Below are positions 1 through 20,125 of a stretch of 32,000 nucleotides of DNA, piece by piece. Within the stretch, counting starts at the first letter, position 1, and each line of letters opens with the position of its first letter. Below the pieces are notes generated by a model, which saw nothing but the letters and a program-made list of their open reading frames with translations, searched no databases and was not told the DNA's origin. The DNA comes from Fibrobacter succinogenes subsp. succinogenes S85 (GTDB lineage: Bacteria; Fibrobacterota; Fibrobacteria; Fibrobacterales; Fibrobacteraceae), in NCBI RefSeq assembly GCF_000146505.1, contig NC_017448.1, positions 2,190,001 to 2,222,000 on the forward strand, in the 5' to 3' direction. The position numbers and the translations under genes were made by a program.

Positions 1-84
1 CGGGAACATGAAAAGCAGAATCACCGTATTGCGGTTATTCCGCCAAATCTGGGTTTGGAGACCGACGTAACGCATAAGCAGTAG
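1..84 (+). CDS. 3' end of an unidentified gene entering from the left edge (partial)
   Basis: Frame 1 is open from base 1 to TAG 82-84 (...NHRIAVIPPNLGLETDVTHKQ*). Too short to name. The stop codon is the first TAG of the heptamer array 82-109. Confidence 0.3.
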   Translation, partial: REHEKQNHRIAVIPPNLGLETDVTHKQ

Positions 85-109
85 GAAGTTAGAAGTAGGA
101 AGTAGACAG
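82..109 (+). repeat. 7-nt periodic TAG-word array (TAGGAAG TTAGAAG TAGGAAG TAGACAG)
   Basis: Read directly. Same word family as 9719-9746. The word GTAGACAGTAGG recurs on the minus strand at 178-189, just after the lemA stop. Confidence 0.85.
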
Positions 110-157: not shown

Positions 158-192
158 CATTATATTACTGCTTACGGCCTACTGTCTACTCA

Positions 193-4466: not shown

Positions 4467-4535
4467 TGGCCCTATGCTACTATACTACGCTAAACAACTA
4501 AAGCAGCTGCTCATCTACATCATCACCGAGTATTT

Positions 4536-5538: not shown

Positions 5539-5573
5539 TACTAACCACCAACCACTAACCACTAATCACCGCC
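5539..5573 (-). repeat. 7-nt periodic array (minus strand: ..TGATTAG TGGTTAG TGGTTGG TGGTTAG TAGG..)
   Basis: Plus strand reads TACTAAC CACCAAC CACTAAC CACTAAT CACCGCC. The array overlaps the stop codon of the M48-like gene (5566-5568). On the minus strand it places stops in all three frames. Confidence 0.8.
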
Positions 5574-6129
5574 CGCCTACTACTTTCTTAAGCATTCTCT
5601 GGCTGCGTAATGCGACGGTCGGATGTTCCCTGTAAATTGATGCAAAAAATTTCGTGTACGGGATTTCGCATTCGGCAAGTTCCTGCATGGCAGCTTTCGC
5701 CTTCTGCTTCCCTACTTCCTTAAACGCATACGCATCCGCTTCGAACTCCTGAGTCCAGCAATACCAATTGAAAAAATAGCGGAACGGAATCGCCACTAAA
5801 TGCAGCCACAAAATCGCTTCGAAAAAGCTTGAATTCCAGCGAGTGACCATCGCCGCCAAGAACCACACGGCCACCATTAAAAATGCAACCTTCATCAAGT
5901 TACGCAAAATTGAATGGCGCAAAACGCGATGGCCCTCTTCGTGTTTTTCCACAAACTGAGTTTTCTGCGGTTCCCTGCGGTTTTCCGGAAGCGGCACAAT
6001 ATCGTTTACCAACGGAATCAACCGCAACACGGCAAACACGCCACCACGCAACTGCGTCAATCTGCGTTCGCGAACTTCAATCGCAACACGCAACGCAATT
6101 TCAAGACAAAGTAAAATATATAACAACAT
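5566..6129 (-). CDS. Small M48/HtpX-like zinc metalloprotease
   Basis: HEEGH (HExxH) is followed by two TM helices, then EFEADAYA and HPTVALR, which is the HtpX-type arrangement. Start is ATG 6127-6129 (a TTG at 6153 is also possible). It lies 9-33 nt downstream of the DUF4954-like gene. Confidence 0.55.
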   Translation of the reverse strand: MLLYILLCLEIALRVAIEVRERRLTQLRGGVFAVLRLIPLVNDIVPLPENRREPQKTQFVEKHEEGHRVLRHSILRNLMKVAFLMVAVWFLAAMVTRWNSSFFEAILWLHLVAIPFRYFFNWYCWTQEFEADAYAFKEVGKQKAKAAMQELAECEIPYTKFFASIYREHPTVALRSQRMLKKVVGGR

Positions 6130-8523: not shown

Positions 8524-9728
8524 AAGTCCTCGTCATAGGCTCCGTCTATCCAAGATTTCAAGAAGATGCCGAAGTTCCCTGGCTGCGCACTTCCATCGCG
8601 CATTTGAAAAAAGCGGGCGTTGAAATCCAGGTACTCGCTCCTGCATACAAAGGACTCAAGAGCCACGACATTGACGGAACGCACGTGAACCGCTTCCGTT
8701 ACGCACCCGCAAGCTGGGAAATCCTCACGCACGAAGAAGGCGCCCCAAGCAAGATGGCCTCCAAGCCATGGTTGCAACTGCTCGCCATCCCTTACATCAT
8801 CAACGGATTTTTTCAGTGCATCAGGATTTGCCGCAAGTGGCGCCCTGACGTGATTCACGCGCACTGGCCGTTTCCGCACGCTTACATTGCACTCGGTGCG
8901 GCCAAGCTTTTTAAAATTCCGCTCGTACTGAACTTCCATGGTGCAGAACTCCTGCTCATCCGCAAAAAGAAGTGGGTCAAACCGCTCCTGAAATTTGCCA
9001 TCGGACAGGCTCAGGCGATCTTTGCAAACTCAAGTTTCACCGCCGGAAAAATCAAGGCGCTCCGCAACGTAGACGTTGAATGGAGTCCGTACGGAACTAC
9101 GCTAGAGACGAGTAGGTTGCAAGGTGAGTGTCGCAACGGCAAATTCAAAATTCTCTTTGTCGGGCGGCACATCGAACGCAAGGGAATCTGCTACCTCATC
9201 GAAGCCGCGAAATACCTGCCCAGAGACAAGTTCGAAATCCGCATTGTCGGTGTCGGTGACTTGACCGAACAGCTTAAGCAGCAAGCAGCTTTATTAGACG
9301 AGAGACAAAAGACGAAAGACGAGAGAGGGGCCGAAATCATTTTCACGGGAAAGCTTTCTCCTGAAGATCTCGCAAACGAATACCGCACGGCAAACGTCTT
9401 TACGCTACCGGCCATCGTTGATCACAAGGGTGACACCGAAGGACTCGGGGTCGTGCTCATCGAAGCGATGGAACTTGGACTGCCGATTGTTGCAAGCAAT
9501 GTCGGTGGCATCCCGGATGTCGTTGTCAATGGAGAGTCCGGAATTCTCGTTCCTGAAAAAGACCCTGTTGCACTTGCCAATGCCTTCAAGCGTCTCGAAG
9601 CAGACCCGACATTGATTCAAAAACTCCTTGCCGGCGCCCGCAAACGCATTGACAAATGCTTCACCTGGGACGGCATCATCGAACGCCAGGTTGAAGTGTA
9701 CAAGAAAGTAGTAGACAGTAGGAAGTAG
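8520..9728 (+). CDS. Glycosyltransferase family 4 (GT-B)
   Basis: C-terminal signature EGLGVVLIEAMELGLPIVASNVGGIPDVVVNGESGILVP. The N-terminal domain (VLAPAY.., HAHWPFPH) is typical of GT4. Confidence 0.85.
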   Translation: MKVLVIGSVYPRFQEDAEVPWLRTSIAHLKKAGVEIQVLAPAYKGLKSHDIDGTHVNRFRYAPASWEILTHEEGAPSKMASKPWLQLLAIPYIINGFFQCIRICRKWRPDVIHAHWPFPHAYIALGAAKLFKIPLVLNFHGAELLLIRKKKWVKPLLKFAIGQAQAIFANSSFTAGKIKALRNVDVEWSPYGTTLETSRLQGECRNGKFKILFVGRHIERKGICYLIEAAKYLPRDKFEIRIVGVGDLTEQLKQQAALLDERQKTKDERGAEIIFTGKLSPEDLANEYRTANVFTLPAIVDHKGDTEGLGVVLIEAMELGLPIVASNVGGIPDVVVNGESGILVPEKDPVALANAFKRLEADPTLIQKLLAGARKRIDKCFTWDGIIERQVEVYKKVVDSRK

Positions 9729-9746
9729 GAAGTAGGAAGTTAGAAG
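9719..9746 (+). repeat. (TAGGAAG)x3 + TTAGAAG heptamer array
   Basis: Read directly. The GT4 stop codon (9726-9728) is the second TAG. TAGs at 9719, 9726 and 9733 fall in all three frames. Confidence 0.9.
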
Positions 9747-9766
9747 TAAAAACAGATAAAAAATAA

Positions 9767-9792
9767 CCGCGATTCTTCGCGGCATTTTTTTT
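9767..9792. terminator. Bidirectional intrinsic terminator between convergent genes
   Basis: Hairpin CCGCGA-TTCT-TCGCGG (9767-9782), flanked by an A-run upstream and T8 downstream (9785-9792). Confidence 0.7.
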
Positions 9793-10257: not shown

Positions 10258-10329
10258 TAGCGGTTCAGGGATTTGAACCCCGGACCAATGGATTATGATT
10301 CCAGTGCTCTACCGCTGAGCTAAACCGCC
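10258..10329 (-). tRNA. tRNA with CAT anticodon (elongator Met, or Ile2 if lysidine-modified)
   Basis: The minus-strand sequence GGCGGTTTAGCTCAGCGGTAGAGCACTGGAATCATAATCCATTGGTCCGGGGTTCAAATCCCTGAACCGCTA folds as a cloverleaf: 7-bp acceptor stem with one G-U, GCTC/GAGC D stem, GGTTCAAATCC T arm. CCA is not encoded. The anticodon stem lacks the three G-C pairs of initiator tRNA. Confidence 0.85.
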
Positions 10330-10364: not shown

Positions 10365-11114
10365 TCAAGGGGTATTTGAAAAATAAACCTTTGTTTCCAT
10401 AAAATTTTCGCCCCACTCTATCAGGCGCCAGCGCGGTGCAGCCGAACTCAGACAAAATACCGTAATGTTTGGGTCAATCTGCATCTGCGTCGACGGCGTG
10501 ACATACACAGTCTTGTCTTCAAGCTGGATAGTCATCTCGCTGTGGTAATGCCCGACAAAAATATGCTTAAGATTCTTAATCTTCGAAAGCGTCGCCTGGA
10601 CTTCGGCAATATTCTTCATCGAATATCTCAAATCCATGAACTTGTGGCCGCAAAGGCAAGGCGGGTGATGGAGGAACAGCAGGACTTCACCATCAATTTT
10701 AGCCGTCTCCTGCTCAAGCCATGAAAGCTGATCGGACGAAACCGTGCCGTCTGCACTATCCAAGAAGAAAATCGAACGTCCGTCGAGATCGTAGCGGTAA
10801 TAGCACTTTCCGTTATGGACCTTGTCCTTCAAGTCAAAGACCTTTTCCATGACTTCAAGATTGTCGTGATTTCCAGGAATAATGCAGACCGGGACCTTGC
10901 TGTCCTTGATGACACCGGCAATGAAAGAATAGGCGTCTGTGGACGCATTGTCGGCCAAGTCTCCAGAAAGCACCAAAAGGTCCAAATCCTTCATGGATTC
11001 GGAATTATAGGCCGTAAGGAAATTCTTGCGAACATCGATATCCTGCACAAGGCGGTCATCGTCACCGATGTGCGCATCCGATATCTGACCTATCTTGAGT
11101 ACTTTCTTTTCCAT
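10365..11114 (-). CDS. Calcineurin-like metallophosphoesterase (CpdA-type cyclic-nucleotide phosphodiesterase family)
   Basis: Ordered motifs DAHIGD, GDLADN, GNHDN, HHPP and GHYH. Start taken at ATG 11112-11114 (MEKKVLKIGQ...). Confidence 0.8.
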   Translation of the reverse strand: MEKKVLKIGQISDAHIGDDDRLVQDIDVRKNFLTAYNSESMKDLDLLVLSGDLADNASTDAYSFIAGVIKDSKVPVCIIPGNHDNLEVMEKVFDLKDKVHNGKCYYRYDLDGRSIFFLDSADGTVSSDQLSWLEQETAKIDGEVLLFLHHPPCLCGHKFMDLRYSMKNIAEVQATLSKIKNLKHIFVGHYHSEMTIQLEDKTVYVTPSTQMQIDPNITVFCLSSAAPRWRLIEWGENFMETKVYFSNTP

Positions 11115-11455
11115 ACAACTACGTAGAATATACATGAATATAGCTATTGAGACACGAAAATGAAAAGTTTGTCCGTTTTTTTATGCATTTTGTGATGACA
11201 GGCATACTTTTGTGAACTTTGTCACACAATCTTCAACATACTTTCGTGACCATTTCGTGAATTAACATTGAAAACTCTGGTTCAACATCTATCAACGTTG
11301 AAAAAAGTGAATAGATTTTAAATTTTCAACATTAATCCACATTTTGTTTATTTCTGTAACTCGTTGATTTTCATAGAGTTACATTTTTGATTTCAAATTT
11401 TTATCCACTATTCACTACATTAAATATTAAATACTATATATAAATATATCTAATA

Positions 11456-11833
11456 TTATTTAATAGAGGTGGTTGATTGTTTTTCCTTCTTGCCTGCAGG
11501 CGTTTCGTTCATGTCGCAAGCACCCTGGAAGATGGCTCCTTCGTTGATGACGAGCTGTTCTGCCTTTACATTACCGATTATTTTGGCATTGTCCTGTAGA
11601 ATGAGCTTTCCGTTGCATTCTACATTTCCCTTGATAGCACCTGCAAGAATAGCGGTGCCACACTTGACATCGCCTTCTATAATTGCAAGCTTTTCGAGAA
11701 TCAGTTCTCCGTCAATAAAGACGTTTCCATAAACCTTTCCGGCGATGCGCAAATCCGTTTTTCCGGCAATATCTCCATTGACCTGGACACTTCTACCAAC
11801 TTGAGTAAATTCCTGTTCGTTTTTGCTCGCCAT
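11456..11833 (-). CDS. Bactofilin (polymer-forming cytoskeletal protein)
   Basis: 125 aa of repetitive beta-helix pattern (G.V.G.I......I.G.V.GNV) with a short Lys/Glu-rich tail. SD is AAAGGGGAAAATT-ATG. Confidence 0.85.
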   Translation of the reverse strand: MASKNEQEFTQVGRSVQVNGDIAGKTDLRIAGKVYGNVFIDGELILEKLAIIEGDVKCGTAILAGAIKGNVECNGKLILQDNAKIIGNVKAEQLVINEGAIFQGACDMNETPAGKKEKQSTTSIK

Positions 11834-12673: not shown

Positions 12674-13672
12674 TTAGCGATTGTCCATTATTTCCTGGAT
12701 TCTTGTCAGGTCGTCCATGGAATAATAGTTGATGACGATGGTGCCTCTAGTCTGGTCCTTGGCGTTCGGGTTGAGTGCGACCTTTGTACCGAAGAATGTT
12801 TCGAGCCTGTTTTCGAAGTTCTTGAGGTCAGCGCTGAGTTCCGGCTTCGGTCTCGGTTCGCTGCCGTGGACTTCCGGCATTTCATCTTCTTCGGGAGTAG
12901 ATGCGCCATTTTCCGGTTCAGCTTCTTTCGTCTCTCCCTCGTCTCTCGTCTGGGCGAACGGATCTTCACCGCGGGCAATAGCTTCGATCTGGCGAACGTT
13001 CAAGCCTTCTTCGATGACGCGCTTTGCGAGAGCTTCCGGGTCTGCAATTTTTTCACTGCAGAGAGCACGGGCGGCACCGCCTGCAAGTTTGCCTTCTTGG
13101 ATCCAGGCTTGCACCTGGTTCGGGAGTTTCAAGAGACGAAGTGCGTTCGTGATGGCAGAACGGGACTTGCCGACCGTCTTGGCCAAGTCGTCGTGCGTGT
13201 AGTTGTGGTTGTCGATCAACTGCTGGTAGGATTGTGCCACTTCAATCGGGTTCAAGTCCACGCGCTGGATGTTCTCGATGAGAGCCCATTCGCTCATGGT
13301 CTTGTCGTCAAGATTGTCGTAAACCTGAGCCTTGATGGTTCTGCAGTTGGCAAGTTTCGATGCACGAGTACGGCGTTCACCGCTGATGATTTGATAACGG
13401 TCGCCCACCTTGCGGACAGCAATCGGCTGGATAAGGCCGTGCTTTTCGATGGTTTCAGCAAGTTCGACAAGTTCATCGTCGTCGAAGAACTTGCGCGGCT
13501 GGAACGGGTTCGGGTCAATCAAGTCAATGTTGATTTCGACGATTTTCTGATTGTCCGTATTTACGTTTTCAGTAGCTCCGGTATTGTTGATGGCGTTATC
13601 GACAGAGTTGCCGAGAACATCGTGTGCCTTAAAAATTGCAGAGAGACCGCGACCAAGTGCTTGTTTACCCAT
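12674..13672 (-). CDS. parB: Chromosome partitioning protein ParB/Spo0J
   Basis: GRGLSAIF box, IQPIAVRK...YQIISGERRTRASKLA (ParB box/CTPase motif), an HTH region, and a C-terminal dimerisation domain after an acidic linker. Confidence 0.95.
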   Translation of the reverse strand: MGKQALGRGLSAIFKAHDVLGNSVDNAINNTGATENVNTDNQKIVEINIDLIDPNPFQPRKFFDDDELVELAETIEKHGLIQPIAVRKVGDRYQIISGERRTRASKLANCRTIKAQVYDNLDDKTMSEWALIENIQRVDLNPIEVAQSYQQLIDNHNYTHDDLAKTVGKSRSAITNALRLLKLPNQVQAWIQEGKLAGGAARALCSEKIADPEALAKRVIEEGLNVRQIEAIARGEDPFAQTRDEGETKEAEPENGASTPEEDEMPEVHGSEPRPKPELSADLKNFENRLETFFGTKVALNPNAKDQTRGTIVINYYSMDDLTRIQEIMDNR

Positions 13673-13686
13673 TTTTTAGTTCTCAG

Positions 13687-13786
13687 TTAGTAGTTAATAG
13701 TTGCTAGAATATTTAGTTGGCAGAACTTAGACCGCTTCGCTCTTAGAACTTAGAAAAAAATACTAAGCTCTAAGCTCTAAGTTCTA
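13687..13786. repeat. TAG/CTA-word palindromic spacer between parA and parB
   Basis: Plus strand: TTAGTAG TTAATAG TTGCTAG (13687-13707) ... CTTAGAACTTAG-A7-TA-CTAAGCT CTAAGCT CTAAGTT CTA (13763-13786). TAGAACTTAG (13744-13753) is complementary to CTAAGTTCTA (13777-13786). The parA stop (13784-13786) is the first TAG of the minus-strand array. Confidence 0.8.
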
Positions 13787-15215: not shown

Positions 15216-15242
15216 GTTTTCTCTTTTTGTGATATGGAAAAA

Positions 15243-15322
15243 TGTTTGGACACTTCGTGTCCAACATGCTCATGCTCGGTCATGCCGGTGTACAAGCACC
15301 CCGTCGCGACACTCGCTATCGC
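15243..15322. repeat. Three-hairpin element, copy 1 (GGACAC hairpin - linker - ACAAG-loop hairpin - small hairpin)
   Basis: TGTTTGGACAC-TTC-GTGTCCAACA (15243-15266), linker ..GCTCGGTCAT.., GGTGT-ACAA-GCACC (15287-15300), GCGA-CAC-TCGC. The same order and similar spacing are seen at 15895-15972. Confidence 0.7.
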
Positions 15323-15407
15323 ATGTTTGCTCCTTCGGAGCCAACTTGCTGCACCTCGGAAATGTCGGTAAACAAGTTTCCCGCCGCTTCCTCGGTTTGC
15401 AATTGTT
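15323..15407 (+). repeat. 85-bp direct repeat, copy A
   Basis: 84/85 identical to 15814-15898. Begins with the hairpin TGTTTGCTCC-TTC-GGAGCCAAC. Its last 4 nt (TGTT) are also the first 4 nt of parS at 15404. Confidence 0.9.
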
Positions 15408-15419
15408 TCACGTGGAACA
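15404..15419. other. parS: parS centromere-like site, TGTTTCACGTGGAACA
   Basis: 15/16 match to the palindromic consensus TGTTTCACGTGAAACA, and identical to the reverse complement of the Bacillus subtilis-type TGTTCCACGTGAAACA. Lies 190 bp upstream of rsmG-parAB. Confidence 0.85.
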
Positions 15420-15544
15420 TTTTTGACTATCATATTCCGATTTGAAATTTAGTATAACTTTTTTAGAAAACAATTAACAAACTCCCCCGCTCCCTAAAAT
15501 TCATAAAATATATGTTGATAACATTTTGATAAATGTTGAGAAAC

Positions 15545-15795
15545 TGTTAAGCCGAATGCTGCGAAATGTATGCTTGCATACATTTCATAGCTGAGGCGCC
15601 AGTTTCGCGCTTGCGCAAATGTTGTTAAGGCGAGAGTTGCGGAAAGCATGCTTGCATGCTTTCCATAACCGAGCCGACCAACATAGCGCTTGCGCAGAAC
15701 TTGTTAAGGTGAGAGTCGCAAAAATAAGCTTGCTTATTTTTATGACCGAACCGCTGAGTTCGCGCTTGCGCAAAAATTGTTAAGGTGAGAGTCGC
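15545..15795 (+). repeat. Tandem array, about 3.3 units of 76-79 bp, each with two CTTG-loop hairpins
   Basis: Unit landmarks TGTTAAG at 15545/15623/15702/15778. Long-hairpin loops (CTTG) at 15573, 15651 and 15729 are exactly 78 nt apart. The conserved short hairpin GCG-CTTG-CGC is at 15607, 15686 and 15762. The GAGAGTYGC motif is at 15632, 15711 and 15787. Confidence 0.85.
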
Positions 15796-15813
15796 TTTGT
15801 TTTTGTTTGGACT

Positions 15814-15898
15814 ATGTTTGCTCCTTCGGAGCCAACTTGCTGCACCTCGGAAATGTCGGTAAACAAGTTTCCCGCCGCTTTCTCGGTTTGCAATTGTT
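15814..15898 (+). repeat. 85-bp direct repeat, copy B
   Basis: One mismatch versus 15323-15407 (C/T at repeat position 68). Preceded by a half palindrome TGTTTGGACTAT (15804-15815) and followed by the GGACAC hairpin at 15898-15916. Confidence 0.9.
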
Positions 15899-15972
15899 AG
15901 GACACTTTGTGTCCTACCTCTTGGGGCTCAGTAATGCCCATACAAGTATGGGCGCTACATTCGCCCTGTAGA
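15895..15972. repeat. Three-hairpin element, copy 2
   Basis: TAGGACAC-TTT-GTGTCCTA (15898-15916), linker ..GCTCAGTAAT.., GCCCATA-CAAG-TATGGGC (15936-15953), CTACA-TTCGCCC-TGTAG. Same architecture as 15243-15322. Confidence 0.7.
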
Positions 15973-15988
15973 GGTTTCACGTGAAACA
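15973..15988. other. parS: parS site, GGTTTCACGTGAAACA
   Basis: 15/16 match to the consensus; only the outermost base differs. It forms the 5' end of a 105-nt structured module (15973-16077). Confidence 0.85.
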
Positions 15989-15995
15989 CAGCCGA

Positions 15996-16077
15996 GGTCA
16001 GAAAGCGAAAAAATGCTTGCATTTTTTTATTTGCTGACCGATGGGTGTTGGACTATGGCTTTGCTATAGTCCAAACA
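15996..16077 (+). repeat. Long A/T hairpin (CTTG loop) plus TGTTGGAC...GTCCAAACA palindrome
   Basis: GGTCAG-AAAGCG-AAAAAATG-CTTG-CATTTTTTT-ATTTG-CTGACC (15996-16039), then TGTTGGACTATGG-CTTT-GCTATAGTCCAAACA (16046-16077). Confidence 0.8.
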
Positions 16078-16078
16078 T

Positions 16079-16106
16079 ATAAAAAATCCTCCCGATTCTG
16101 GGAGGA
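16079..16106 (-). terminator. Intrinsic terminator of the 16132-16851 lipoprotein gene
   Basis: On the minus strand, the hairpin TCCTCCC-AGAATC-GGGAGGA is followed by T6. Confidence 0.75.
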
Positions 16107-16131
16107 TGTTCAAGAAGTTTAAAGCTAAATG

Positions 16132-17685: not shown

Positions 17686-18086
17686 ATAGTAATCTCTATT
17701 CTGTTGCCTTCGGGGTCGAGGACGACACTTTCGTAATACCCGTCGCCGGTAGTTCGAGGTTGACCTACAATAGGAGTCCCTTCGGAAGACATTTGTTGGG
17801 TCAGGTGGTCGACCTCTTCTTTTGAACCGACGGAAAAGGAAAGATGGGTAAATCCGAGATGTTCCACGTGAAACATCTCGACAGTCCCAACATTTCGTTC
17901 GACACATATATCAGGGCGGTGCATGACTTCTAGGCGGGCACCATCATCGAAAGTGATGAATCGGCTGGTGAATTGTTTTGCTGGGTTATGGTAAATCGGG
18001 TGGACTACCCCGCCGAAATATTTCCGGTAGAACTCGCATACCTTGTCGATATCTTTAACCCAGATGGCAATATGTTCAATCTTCAT
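17682..18086 (-). CDS. VOC family protein (glyoxalase/bleomycin-resistance/dioxygenase fold)
   Basis: MKIEHIAIWVKDIDKVCEFY...HLSFSV...YYESVVLDPEGNRIEI. Typical size of 134 aa. Confidence 0.8.
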   Translation of the reverse strand: MKIEHIAIWVKDIDKVCEFYRKYFGGVVHPIYHNPAKQFTSRFITFDDGARLEVMHRPDICVERNVGTVEMFHVEHLGFTHLSFSVGSKEEVDHLTQQMSSEGTPIVGQPRTTGDGYYESVVLDPEGNRIEITI

Positions 18087-18143: not shown

Positions 18144-18159
18144 TGTTTCACGTGAAACA
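18144..18159. other. parS: parS site, TGTTTCACGTGAAACA (perfect consensus)
   Basis: 16/16 palindrome, located in the divergent intergenic region between the VOC gene and the 18298 gene. Confidence 0.9.
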
Positions 18160-20109: not shown

Positions 20110-20125
20110 TGTTTCACGTGGAACA
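20110..20125. other. parS: parS site, TGTTTCACGTGGAACA
   Basis: Same 16-mer as at 15404. Lies in an AT-rich 418-bp intergenic region, 11 nt upstream of a perfect DnaA box. Confidence 0.85.

Follow-up and report, generated by a model that had tools for sequence, protein, structure and literature searches.

Heptanucleotide tandem arrays bearing TAG at gene ends of Fibrobacter succinogenes S85 and of other bacteria

The window analyzed in this study is a 32,000-nt stretch of Fibrobacter succinogenes subsp. succinogenes S85 (assembly GCF_000146505.1, contig NC_017448.1, positions 2,190,001 to 2,222,000), in which Pfam confirmed genes for LemA, a BatD-like protein, an M48-like peptidase, GT4, bactofilin and ParA. 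Several of these genes end in or run into short arrays in which the triplet TAG recurs every 7 nt, and a first-pass annotation had read such arrays as three-frame stop cassettes, a binding array or the footprint of a small repeat element. The period-7 TAG arrays were revealed to be real and far beyond chance, since shuffles predict 0.04 occurrences of TAG-N4-TAG-N4-TAG where the window has 5, and 4.6 of TAG-N4-TAG where it has 17. They are best read as belonging to a known class of bacterial heptamer repeats, as are those of Xanthomonas, Nostoc and the Beggiatoaceae.

Materials and methods

The window was placed at about CP001792.1 1,743,278-1,775,277 through the orthologous locus L001 (CP001792.1:1741797-1763005), the offset of 1481 being derived from the GT4 protein. 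Loci L001-L006 are S85 itself and 100% identical to the window. The Fibrobacter set comprised 80 orthologous GT4 loci from other species together with the window (1.57 Mb), with S85 duplicates dropped; the lag-7 pair counts by spacer type obtained from it are inflated by orthology. Tandem repeats were called by TRF, proteins by Pfam and RNA families by Rfam 15. Stop codons were analyzed at 616 Fibrobacter gene ends having at least 45 nt of downstream spacer, in comparison with shuffles. The metagenome sample consisted of the matches listed by a scan for (TAGRMAG)3, in which greedy gene calls were checked with Pfam.

Results

Arrays at the ends of the GT4 and M48-like genes

TRF called period 7 at 80-105, 5543-5570, 9717-9748 and 13763-13786, and additionally at 9296-9326 and 11419-11447. 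The elements at the GT4 and M48-like gene ends are the following.

9702-9749, plus strand: TAG-sense heptamer array GTAGTAG ACAG (TAGGAAG)3 TTAGAAG TAA (consensus AAGTAGG, 6.7 copies, degenerate)
9758-9791, both directions: bidirectional intrinsic terminator (A-tract, CCGCGA-TTCT-TCGCGG, T8), 20 nt beyond the GT4 array
5539-5573, minus strand: array at the M48-like gene end, TGATTAG TGGTTAG TGGTTGG TGGTTAG TAGGCAG, starting at the TGA stop of this 187-aa gene

Direct reading and TRF both confirmed the GT4 array as first described, in which TAGACAG at 9712 is followed by (TAGGAAG)3 at 9719-9739 and TTAGAAG at 9740-9746, with the stop TAG at 9726-9728. As a whole, the array covers the last codons of GT4, this stop and 21 nt of trailer, and the residues DSRK following the conserved YKKV are encoded by it. 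It was predicted to be unpaired and to lie outside the terminator stem, ending 20 nt before it. The minus-strand array at 5539-5573 was likewise found, by reading and TRF, to begin at the TGA stop of the M48-like gene, with the units TGATTAG TGGTTAG TGGTTGG TGGTTAG TAGG as reported. We also observed that the 3' ends of GT4 (9700-9714) and of the M48-like gene (5578-5590, minus strand) have the 13-mer AAGAAAGTAGTAG (Lys-Lys-Val-Val) in common. The native C-terminus of GT4 is the conserved YKKV(V/I), the GTAGTAG of which may have seeded or attracted the array.

Comparison of the orthologous sites revealed different units. At the GT4 stop, (TAGGAAG)n was present in S85 only, whereas the nearest relatives carried other period-7 TAG units (GTGGTTAG TGATTAG TGGTTAG in L011 and L064; TAGTTGC TAACTTG TAGTTGC TAG in L010) and distant species none. 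At the corresponding gene end of the M48-like orthologues, the units were TAGTGGT/TAGTCAA or TAGGCAG/TAGACAG. In one rare case (L070 1200-1226; 66% GT4 identity), GT4 ended within (TTAACAA)4, a TAA-bearing array whose stop-bearing strand has C>G, so that a stop-sense rule is separated there from a G-rich-sense rule.

Arrays within coding regions

Heptamer arrays were also found inside genes.

9296-9326, plus strand: in-frame array of AGACGAG/AGACGAA (4.4 copies) in the GT4 coding region, encoding the charged linker DERQKTKDERG
12924-12951, minus strand: in-frame AGACGAG-type array in the ParB coding region (TRF)

In a protein alignment (L007-L086, positions around 10580-10990), the GT4 orthologues, which range from 392 to 485 aa, differed at two hypervariable sites of insertion, one of which follows SPYGTTL and the other LKQQA. 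These two sites hold array-encoded charged peptides and, in some species, also translated palindromic modules GTCATCCTGA...GAAGGATC (VILNE..., CHPERNEVKSKDP), both kinds being inserted in frame into a conserved protein without disrupting it. Arrays of the TAG type persisted in coding regions only where TCG replaced the in-frame TAG or where an 8-nt unit (GTTAGAAG, GTTCGAAG) reset the frame. The palindrome GTCATYCYGA was considered as an obligatory partner of the arrays and rejected for S85, being essentially absent from the window.

Paired arrays in the lemA-M48 and parA-parB spacers

Two intercistronic spacers contain arrays in both orientations.

82-109, plus strand (CTA-sense to M48): TAGGAAG TTAGAAG TAGGAAG TAGACAG, the inverted partner of 166-192
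118-157, no strand assigned: two GC-rich hairpins between the paired arrays, GCGCCGAAAGCGC and GCGCGAC-ACCA-GTCGCGC (folding)
166-192, minus strand: TAG-sense array after the lemA stop, TAA tg AGTAGAC AGTAGGC CGTAAGC AGTAA (reading)
13673-13712, minus strand: parB leader CTAGCAA CTATTAA CTACTAA CTGAGAA CTAAAAA ATG, CTA-phased heptamers with one exact TAACTGA
13722-13756, minus strand: CTA-sense arms CTAAGTTCTAAGAGC ... CTAAGTTCT, complementary to the parA-stop array
13763-13786, minus strand: parA-stop array TAG AACTTAG AGCTTAG AGCTTAG, the 5' arm of an intercistronic hairpin

The array at 82-109 had been assigned to the stop of a plus-strand gene at the left edge, but the open reading frame (ORF) concerned turned out to be a 69-aa antisense ORF within an M48 peptidase gene on the minus strand. 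As read from the longer locus, this gene encodes 350 aa (Pfam E = 5.5e-31) starting MRYVGLQ, with its ATG at window 75-73; lemA and M48 are therefore co-directional. Because the M48 gene runs on the minus strand and its ATG lies 6 nt beyond the array, 82-109 is a CTA-sense array in the M48 leader. The TAG-rich trailer proposed behind lemA, in turn, was verified at 166-192. On the sense strand, the lemA stop is thus followed by a TAG-sense array (192-166), two hairpins with T7, and a CTA-sense array (109-82), with the ATG 6 nt on. The first hairpin of 118-157, read on the minus strand, is followed by the T7 and appears terminator-like. Complementarity between the two arrays is perfect in their inner units (AGTAGACAG / CTGTCTACT), and the spacer folds better than shuffles (z = -3.8 and -3.0). 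A near-consensus match to a sigma-70-type promoter was also noticed at 188-159 on the minus strand, directed towards M48 (11/12; TAGACA, 18 nt, TATAAT), with an array word as its -35 element; it is a match by consensus only, which Fibrobacter promoters may not follow.

The parA-parB spacer has a similar plan: a TAG array at the stop, complementary CTAAGTTCTAAG arms, and a CTA-phased leader up to the parB ATG. The first TAG of 13763-13786 is the parA stop, as reading and TRF agreed with the earlier description. Loci L007, L012 and L015 share this architecture with other units, and in the seven examined orthologues carrying the parB leader, its array character was retained while the units differed. 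With these spacers taken into account, the earlier generalization that the TAG-rich strand is the sense strand of the upstream gene in every case does not hold for 82-109, the parB leader (13673-13707) or the inner arms (13735-13756).

Periodicity, base specificity and turnover across Fibrobacter

In the Fibrobacter set, TAG triples at periods 3 to 15 numbered 3, 1, 1, 6, 80, 0, 0, 1, 2, 17, 1, 33 and 7, respectively. No enrichment of TAG was seen at periods 4, 5 and 8, and neither TAA nor TGA gave a peak comparable to that of TAG at period 7. Among the 64 trinucleotides, TAG/CTA showed the strongest intergenic lag-7 signal (214 pairs over a background of 45), and the commonest intergenic period called by TRF was 7. 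Strict TAG-phased arrays numbered 47, and the units fell into several families: TAGGAAG/TAGACAG/TAGGCAG, TAGTGGT/TAGTGAT, TAGGTTT/TAGGGGT, TAGAACT/TAGAGCT, TAGTTAA, the stop-free AGACGAG, and others. Many heptamer arrays called by TRF were without TAG, notably AGACGAG/AGACGAA. None of the window units TAGGAAG, TGGTTAG and AGCTTAG contains a G-tract of three or more bases. Within arrays, TAG was conserved at 0.87-0.89 and the spacer at 0.78-0.81 when TRF calls were used, a comparison which TRF itself biases and of which the unbiased version has only n = 14.

The arrays are restricted to part of the genus and turn over between close relatives. TAG period-7 triples per 100 kb fell from 16.4 through 5.2 and 3.2 to 0.6 as GT4 identity dropped from at least 84% to 68% or less, and 62 of the 81 loci had none. 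L038 and L042, whose GT4 genes are 96.7% identical, carry (AGACGAA)3 in one case and (AGACGAG)3 in the other, with the same position changed in three consecutive units, a concerted change of the kind that slippage produces. An irregular 14-mer, TAGGAAGTTAGAAG, was common to two S85 loci, two L011 loci (one within the GT4 coding region), L036, L064 and one metagenome contig. Public short-read assemblies of S85 (L002, L003, L005, L006) were further observed to end within arrays, at window 80 and 13743, and the array sequences are thus implied to be multi-copy in the genome. With the 14-mer at unlinked coding and non-coding sites and these breaks inside arrays, some copying between loci also seems to have taken place. 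A scan of viral contigs for the composite 21-mer gave no match.

Strand polarity

TAG is enriched at lag 7 downstream of stops: 71 pairs were counted on the sense strand, while other lags gave about 11 and CTA gave 21. Before starts, the orientation was reversed, with 84 CTA and 26 TAG pairs. Division of the spacers into halves gave the same picture, in that 79 TAG-sense and 24 CTA-sense pairs lay in the stop-proximal halves, and 81 CTA-sense and 30 TAG-sense pairs in the start-proximal halves; divergent spacers showed no TAG/CTA polarity. All 10 distinct strict arrays overlapping or abutting a stop were TAG-sense and none CTA-sense, whereas arrays farther off were split 5 to 5. Arrays lacking TAG obeyed a similar rule, since G exceeded C on the sense strand in 6 of 7 near stops. 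In short, the G-rich, C-poor strand of the arrays is sense next to a stop, and its complement is sense next to the following start; two such arrays often make up the arms of a hairpin with a terminator inside it.

Two general causes of this polarity were considered. Overall G/C skew was rejected, as the skews of trailers and leaders (-0.04 and +0.01) are if anything opposite. Replication-strand orientation was set aside, as both array directions occur inside a 14-kb part of one replichore.

Arrays in metagenomes

The contigs with (TAGRMAG)3 among the matches listed came from soils, waters and guts and ranged from 31 to 71% GC, the arrays being spread across phyla. All counts in this section are among these matches. 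At or within 60 nt past stops, 58 arrays were TAG-sense and 3 CTA-sense; near starts, 11 were CTA-sense and 5 TAG-sense. Because an ORF on the TAG strand must end in the array, upstream ORFs were checked with Pfam, and strong matches were obtained for 22 of 30 taken at random (RbfA, FtsK, iPGM, ProRS, NifU, FabH, ABC ATPase, cytochrome c and others). In most of the validated cases, the stop was an array unit or lay in a degenerate 5' extension of the array, with several C-terminal codons array-encoded; in the rest, the array was at most about 20 nt off. Arrays reached 16 units or more. Within 250 nt, 27 arrays were followed by a complementary partner array and 1 was preceded by such a partner, the median distance being 60 nt.

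Period 7 was also the leading period among the remaining tandem repeats of these contigs, only 26% of which contained TAG or CTA. Among other heptamer arrays near stops, 8 had stop triplets in the sense strand alone and none had them in the antisense strand alone, and stop-free arrays near stops were G-rich on the sense strand in 6 cases versus 1. The few arrays able to tell a stop-sense rule from a G-rich-sense rule thus speak for both. In L100, L124, L146 and L195, some (TAGGCAG)n arrays have a (CTGCCTA)n arm downstream with which they pair, and a T-run behind that arm, giving a terminator-like hairpin stem; in L100, the arms bracket an apparent GGAGG ribosome-binding site and the ATG of the next gene.

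Three-frame closure at gene ends

Three TAG units close every reading frame because 7 is not a multiple of 3, and the claim that the arrays close all three frames thus holds, by arithmetic, for those with at least three TAG units. Over the 616 gene ends, three frames were closed within 27 nt in 4.1%, compared with 2.4 ± 0.6% in shuffles. When the 35 ends carrying a TAG lag-7 pair were removed, the proportion was 1.9% of 581, compared with 2.4 ± 0.6%, and closure per frame was not above shuffles. No excess of second in-frame (tandem) or three-frame stops was therefore present at the 581 array-free Fibrobacter ends, indicating that there is no general pressure for three-frame or tandem stops.

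Discussion

Relation to known repeats

The literature search returned nothing on Fibrobacter together with heptanucleotide or tandem repeats, nor on these array sequences, and the closest parallels were found in other bacteria. The heptamers GGGAATC of Xanthomonas and GGGGA[C/T]T of Nostoc occur preferentially in the sense orientation within 50 bp past stops, including overlap with the stop, and in the antisense orientation upstream of ORFs (Rehm et al., 2015, PMC4692102). They form many inverted pairs, are under-represented between divergent genes, and vary in length and sequence among close species, and no function was found for them (PMC4692102). The Fibrobacter arrays resemble them in the 7-nt unit, the non-coding bias, the G-rich-sense polarity and the inverted pairs. 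They differ in that the Xanthomonas and Nostoc units are stop-free G-tracts that form quadruplexes, whereas those of Fibrobacter bear TAG, mostly lack G-tracts and belong to several families per genome.

TAACTGA direct repeats, present in 2-6 intergenic copies in marine Beggiatoaceae, some Cyanobacteria and Bacteroidetes, give stops in all frames when repeated (MacGregor, 2015, PMC4679880). Such stop-bearing repeats can overlap an ORF end by at most about 18 nt and would be tolerated at protein termini or between modules, and many of them lie a few nt upstream of start codons (PMC4679880). The parB and M48 leader arrays are similarly start-proximal, and the parB leader includes one exact TAACTGA. 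In contrast to the single dominant unit there, the stop-bearing strand of which is sense before starts, Fibrobacter has many units, with TAG sense after stops and antisense before starts.

Heptanucleotides have been summarized as the most abundant class of long simple-sequence repeats (SSRs) in prokaryotes, for which polymerase slippage was proposed (Mrazek, 2007, as summarized in PMC4679880 and PMC4692102). The Fibrobacter arrays share the features of that class: head-to-tail 7-nt units in at least 3 copies, an excess of period 7, and turnover of units between relatives. According to the secondary summaries, long SSRs (5-11 bp) and the short tandemly repeated repetitive (STRR) heptamers of cyanobacteria (Calothrix) are also sporadic across lineages, and for them, too, a slippage origin was proposed over a specific role. 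The two secondary summaries of Mrazek, Guo and Shah (2007) mention neither stop-codon overlap nor a TAG bias.

Slippage and tolerance

We therefore regard the arrays, on balance and with only modest confidence, as heptanucleotide SSRs made by slippage and tolerated in trailers, spacers and linkers, of which three-frame closure would be a by-product. Short arrays would arise and turn over through slipped-strand mispairing in 7-nt register, and would build up where extra sequence is tolerated, namely in the trailers between stop and terminator, in co-directional spacers and in permissive protein linkers. When an array grew across the original stop together with some C-terminal codons that the protein can spare, the gene would still end within the array, and the stop codon would so often be an array TAG because a gene overgrown in this way still terminates inside it. 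Given that the sense bias at stops is very strong (10:0 in Fibrobacter; 58:3 among the metagenome matches listed), the stop-closing property probably matters for which arrays are tolerated over gene ends. We infer here that slippage is the generator and that tolerance, instead of selection for stops, would account for the placement. Of the options first put forward, the footprint of a small repeat element comes closest to the evidence, insofar as the heptamer families are lineage-restricted, change in concert and include a 14-mer common to unlinked loci.

Several observations weigh against this account. Copy-number polymorphism within the species was not shown, the near-identical loci L001-L006 all being S85. 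Slippage also leaves unexplained the dominance of TAG over TAA and TGA (TAG or CTA occurs in 57% of distinct intergenic period-7 arrays, compared with an estimated 20% or so for a random heptamer), the G-rich-sense polarity, which ordinary trailers lack, and the spread of TAGGAAGTTAGAAG to unlinked coding and non-coding sites. In addition, the parB leader and the M48-like gene end retain their array character in different species even though the units differ, which could reflect function.

Alternative explanations

The arrays might be RNA-structure elements, in which paired TAG and CTA arrays serve as stem-loop arms in trailers and spacers, like the repetitive extragenic palindromic (REP) sequences and bacterial interspersed mosaic elements (BIMEs) or extended terminators. 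Such elements would stabilize the upstream message, insulate neighboring genes or hide C-rich RNA from Rho, and the G-rich-arm-first order would then be a functional feature. The complementary arms and favorable folding of the lemA-M48 spacer, the nested heptamer-armed hairpin between parA and parB with its counterparts in three other loci, the downstream position of nearly all metagenome partners, some with T-runs behind them, and the many inverted pairs of the Xanthomonas heptamers (PMC4692102) are in agreement with this proposal. We nevertheless consider it unlikely, because the GT4 and M48-like arrays have no partner and fold no better than shuffles (z = -0.8 and -0.2), the parA-parB fold gives z = -1.0, and 58 of the 86 metagenome arrays among the matches listed have no partner at the stringency used. 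Between species, the arms are replaced wholesale.

A second alternative is that copying or insertion, and not local slippage, delivers the arrays as dispersed mobile modules, alone or with the GTCATCCTGA...GAAGGATC palindromes, in-frame insertion being possible as in the palindromic elements of Rickettsia. The REP/BIME sequences of enterobacteria and the Rickettsia elements are extragenic hairpin repeats located just past stops or between operon genes, of which the latter enter genes in frame; both are single palindromic units of 35-150 nt. The Fibrobacter arrays are like REP/BIME in their post-stop and intercistronic placement and their hairpins, and like the Rickettsia elements in the in-frame arrays and palindromic modules of GT4. 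Unlike both, they are tandem heptamers, and no transposase of the REP-associated tyrosine transposase (RAYT) type and no defined element ends were seen. The 14-mer at unlinked loci, the GT4 orthologues with arrays and translated palindromes in frame, and the assembly breaks implying multiple copies favor delivery by copying. However, neither terminal inverted repeats nor target-site duplications were found and no transposase accompanied the arrays, the S85 window contains hardly any of the palindromic modules, a longer insertion in L015 did not recur elsewhere in the 1.5 Mb sampled, and slippage explains the concerted unit change more easily, such that mobile modules appear quite improbable as the principal source.

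It is also conceivable, although we judge it distinctly doubtful, that C-poor heptamer arrays at stops constitute a widespread functional 3'-end signal of bacteria, acting through a factor at 7-nt spacing or through a G-rich-arm-first hairpin that steers the ribosome, RNA polymerase or Rho after the end of translation. If so, the TAG versions would be stop codon and signal at once, and the signature of the signal would be the polarity across phyla (58:3 among the matches listed) together with the persistence of array character while units change.

A further alternative would be a binding array, in which an oligomeric RNA- or single-strand-binding protein reads TAG/UAG every 7 nt and couples the end of translation to termination or mRNA fate. 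A precedent for this kind of recognition is HutP of Bacillus subtilis, a Firmicute protein which reads (UAG-N4)3 in a 5' leader overlapping a terminator and brings about antitermination. Similarly to the HutP site, at least three UAGs at 7-nt spacing occur in sense transcripts of the arrays at 9712-9735 and 13763-13786. In contrast to it, the Fibrobacter arrays are at 3' ends and occur also in the CTA orientation, and stop-free arrays behave alike. The exact recurrence of TAG every 7 nt in several unit families with spacers that vary, the preservation of the TAG phase at orthologous sites despite differing units, and the strong sense polarity past stops across phyla among the metagenome matches listed would fit such a protein. 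Since stop-free arrays follow the same rules, CTA-sense arrays cannot present UAG in mRNA, the distribution is phylogenetically sporadic and the GT4 array lies outside the terminator stem, we consider a binding array very unlikely.

Finally, a selected three-frame stop cassette, kept to halt read-through and frameshifted ribosomes in every frame, can appeal to the arithmetic of at least three TAG units, to the stop-bearing orientation of the arrays abutting stops (10:0 and 58:3) and to the sense-only stops of other metagenome heptamers (8 to 0, among the matches listed), but is extremely improbable as the cause, given that the enrichment concerns only TAG and period 7 although any stop at a spacing that is not a multiple of 3 would do, that array-free ends show no excess of second or three-frame stops, that a TAG lag-7 pair is present at only 35 of the 616 gene ends, that arrays among the metagenome matches listed reach at least 16 units and are often far above three, that stop-free arrays (including GGGAATC of Xanthomonas; PMC4692102) share position and polarity, that equally strong CTA-sense arrays stand upstream of starts, and that arrays are gained and lost between close species.

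Other features of the window

Two further trailers had been described as TAG-rich, one of which proved to be so without period 7 and the other to be weakly periodic.

4467-4535, minus strand: TAG-rich, aperiodic trailer of the BatD-like gene (7 TAG and 0 CTA in 69 nt)
11396-11458, minus strand: AT-rich bactofilin trailer with the weak period-7 array TAGTGAA TAGTGGA TAAAAAT (reading, TRF)

At the site of the bactofilin trailer, L010 has three TAGs in phase. A very AT-rich non-coding stretch of 320 nt (11136-11455) separates bactofilin from a metallophosphatase gene, next to a tRNA gene (10258-10329). In the Rfam 15 search of the window and seven related loci, tRNA was the only RNA family that reached the gathering score.

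A cluster of five parS-like 16-mers was noticed beside gidB-parA-parB (15404-15419, 15973-15988, 17860-17875, 18144-18159 and 20110-20125), against 0.26 expected. A single one matches TGTTTCACGTGAAACA exactly, and the other four differ from it at one position. Two of them lie within a non-coding stretch of about 900 nt downstream of gidB (15216-16131), which also contains an 85-nt direct repeat (15323-15407/15814-15898) of 99% identity and, at 15583-15795, a tandem series of three units measuring 76-79 nt.

Implications

For annotation, the repeats encode the last residues of many proteins, such as DSRK of GT4 and VVGGR of the M48-like protein, and these tails are not conserved sequence; spurious antisense ORFs can seem to end in an array, as did the 69-aa ORF at the left edge. 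Short-read assemblies break in the arrays, which should also be good variable-number markers for typing Fibrobacter strains. With regard to protein evolution, 7-nt slippage would make and remodel charged linkers in GT4 and ParB, which is unusual for a unit that is not a multiple of three. Bacterial heptamers have repeatedly been noted without explanation, and TAG arrays lying on the stops of housekeeping genes, in one orientation and in diverse bacteria, turn them into a sharper and testable question.

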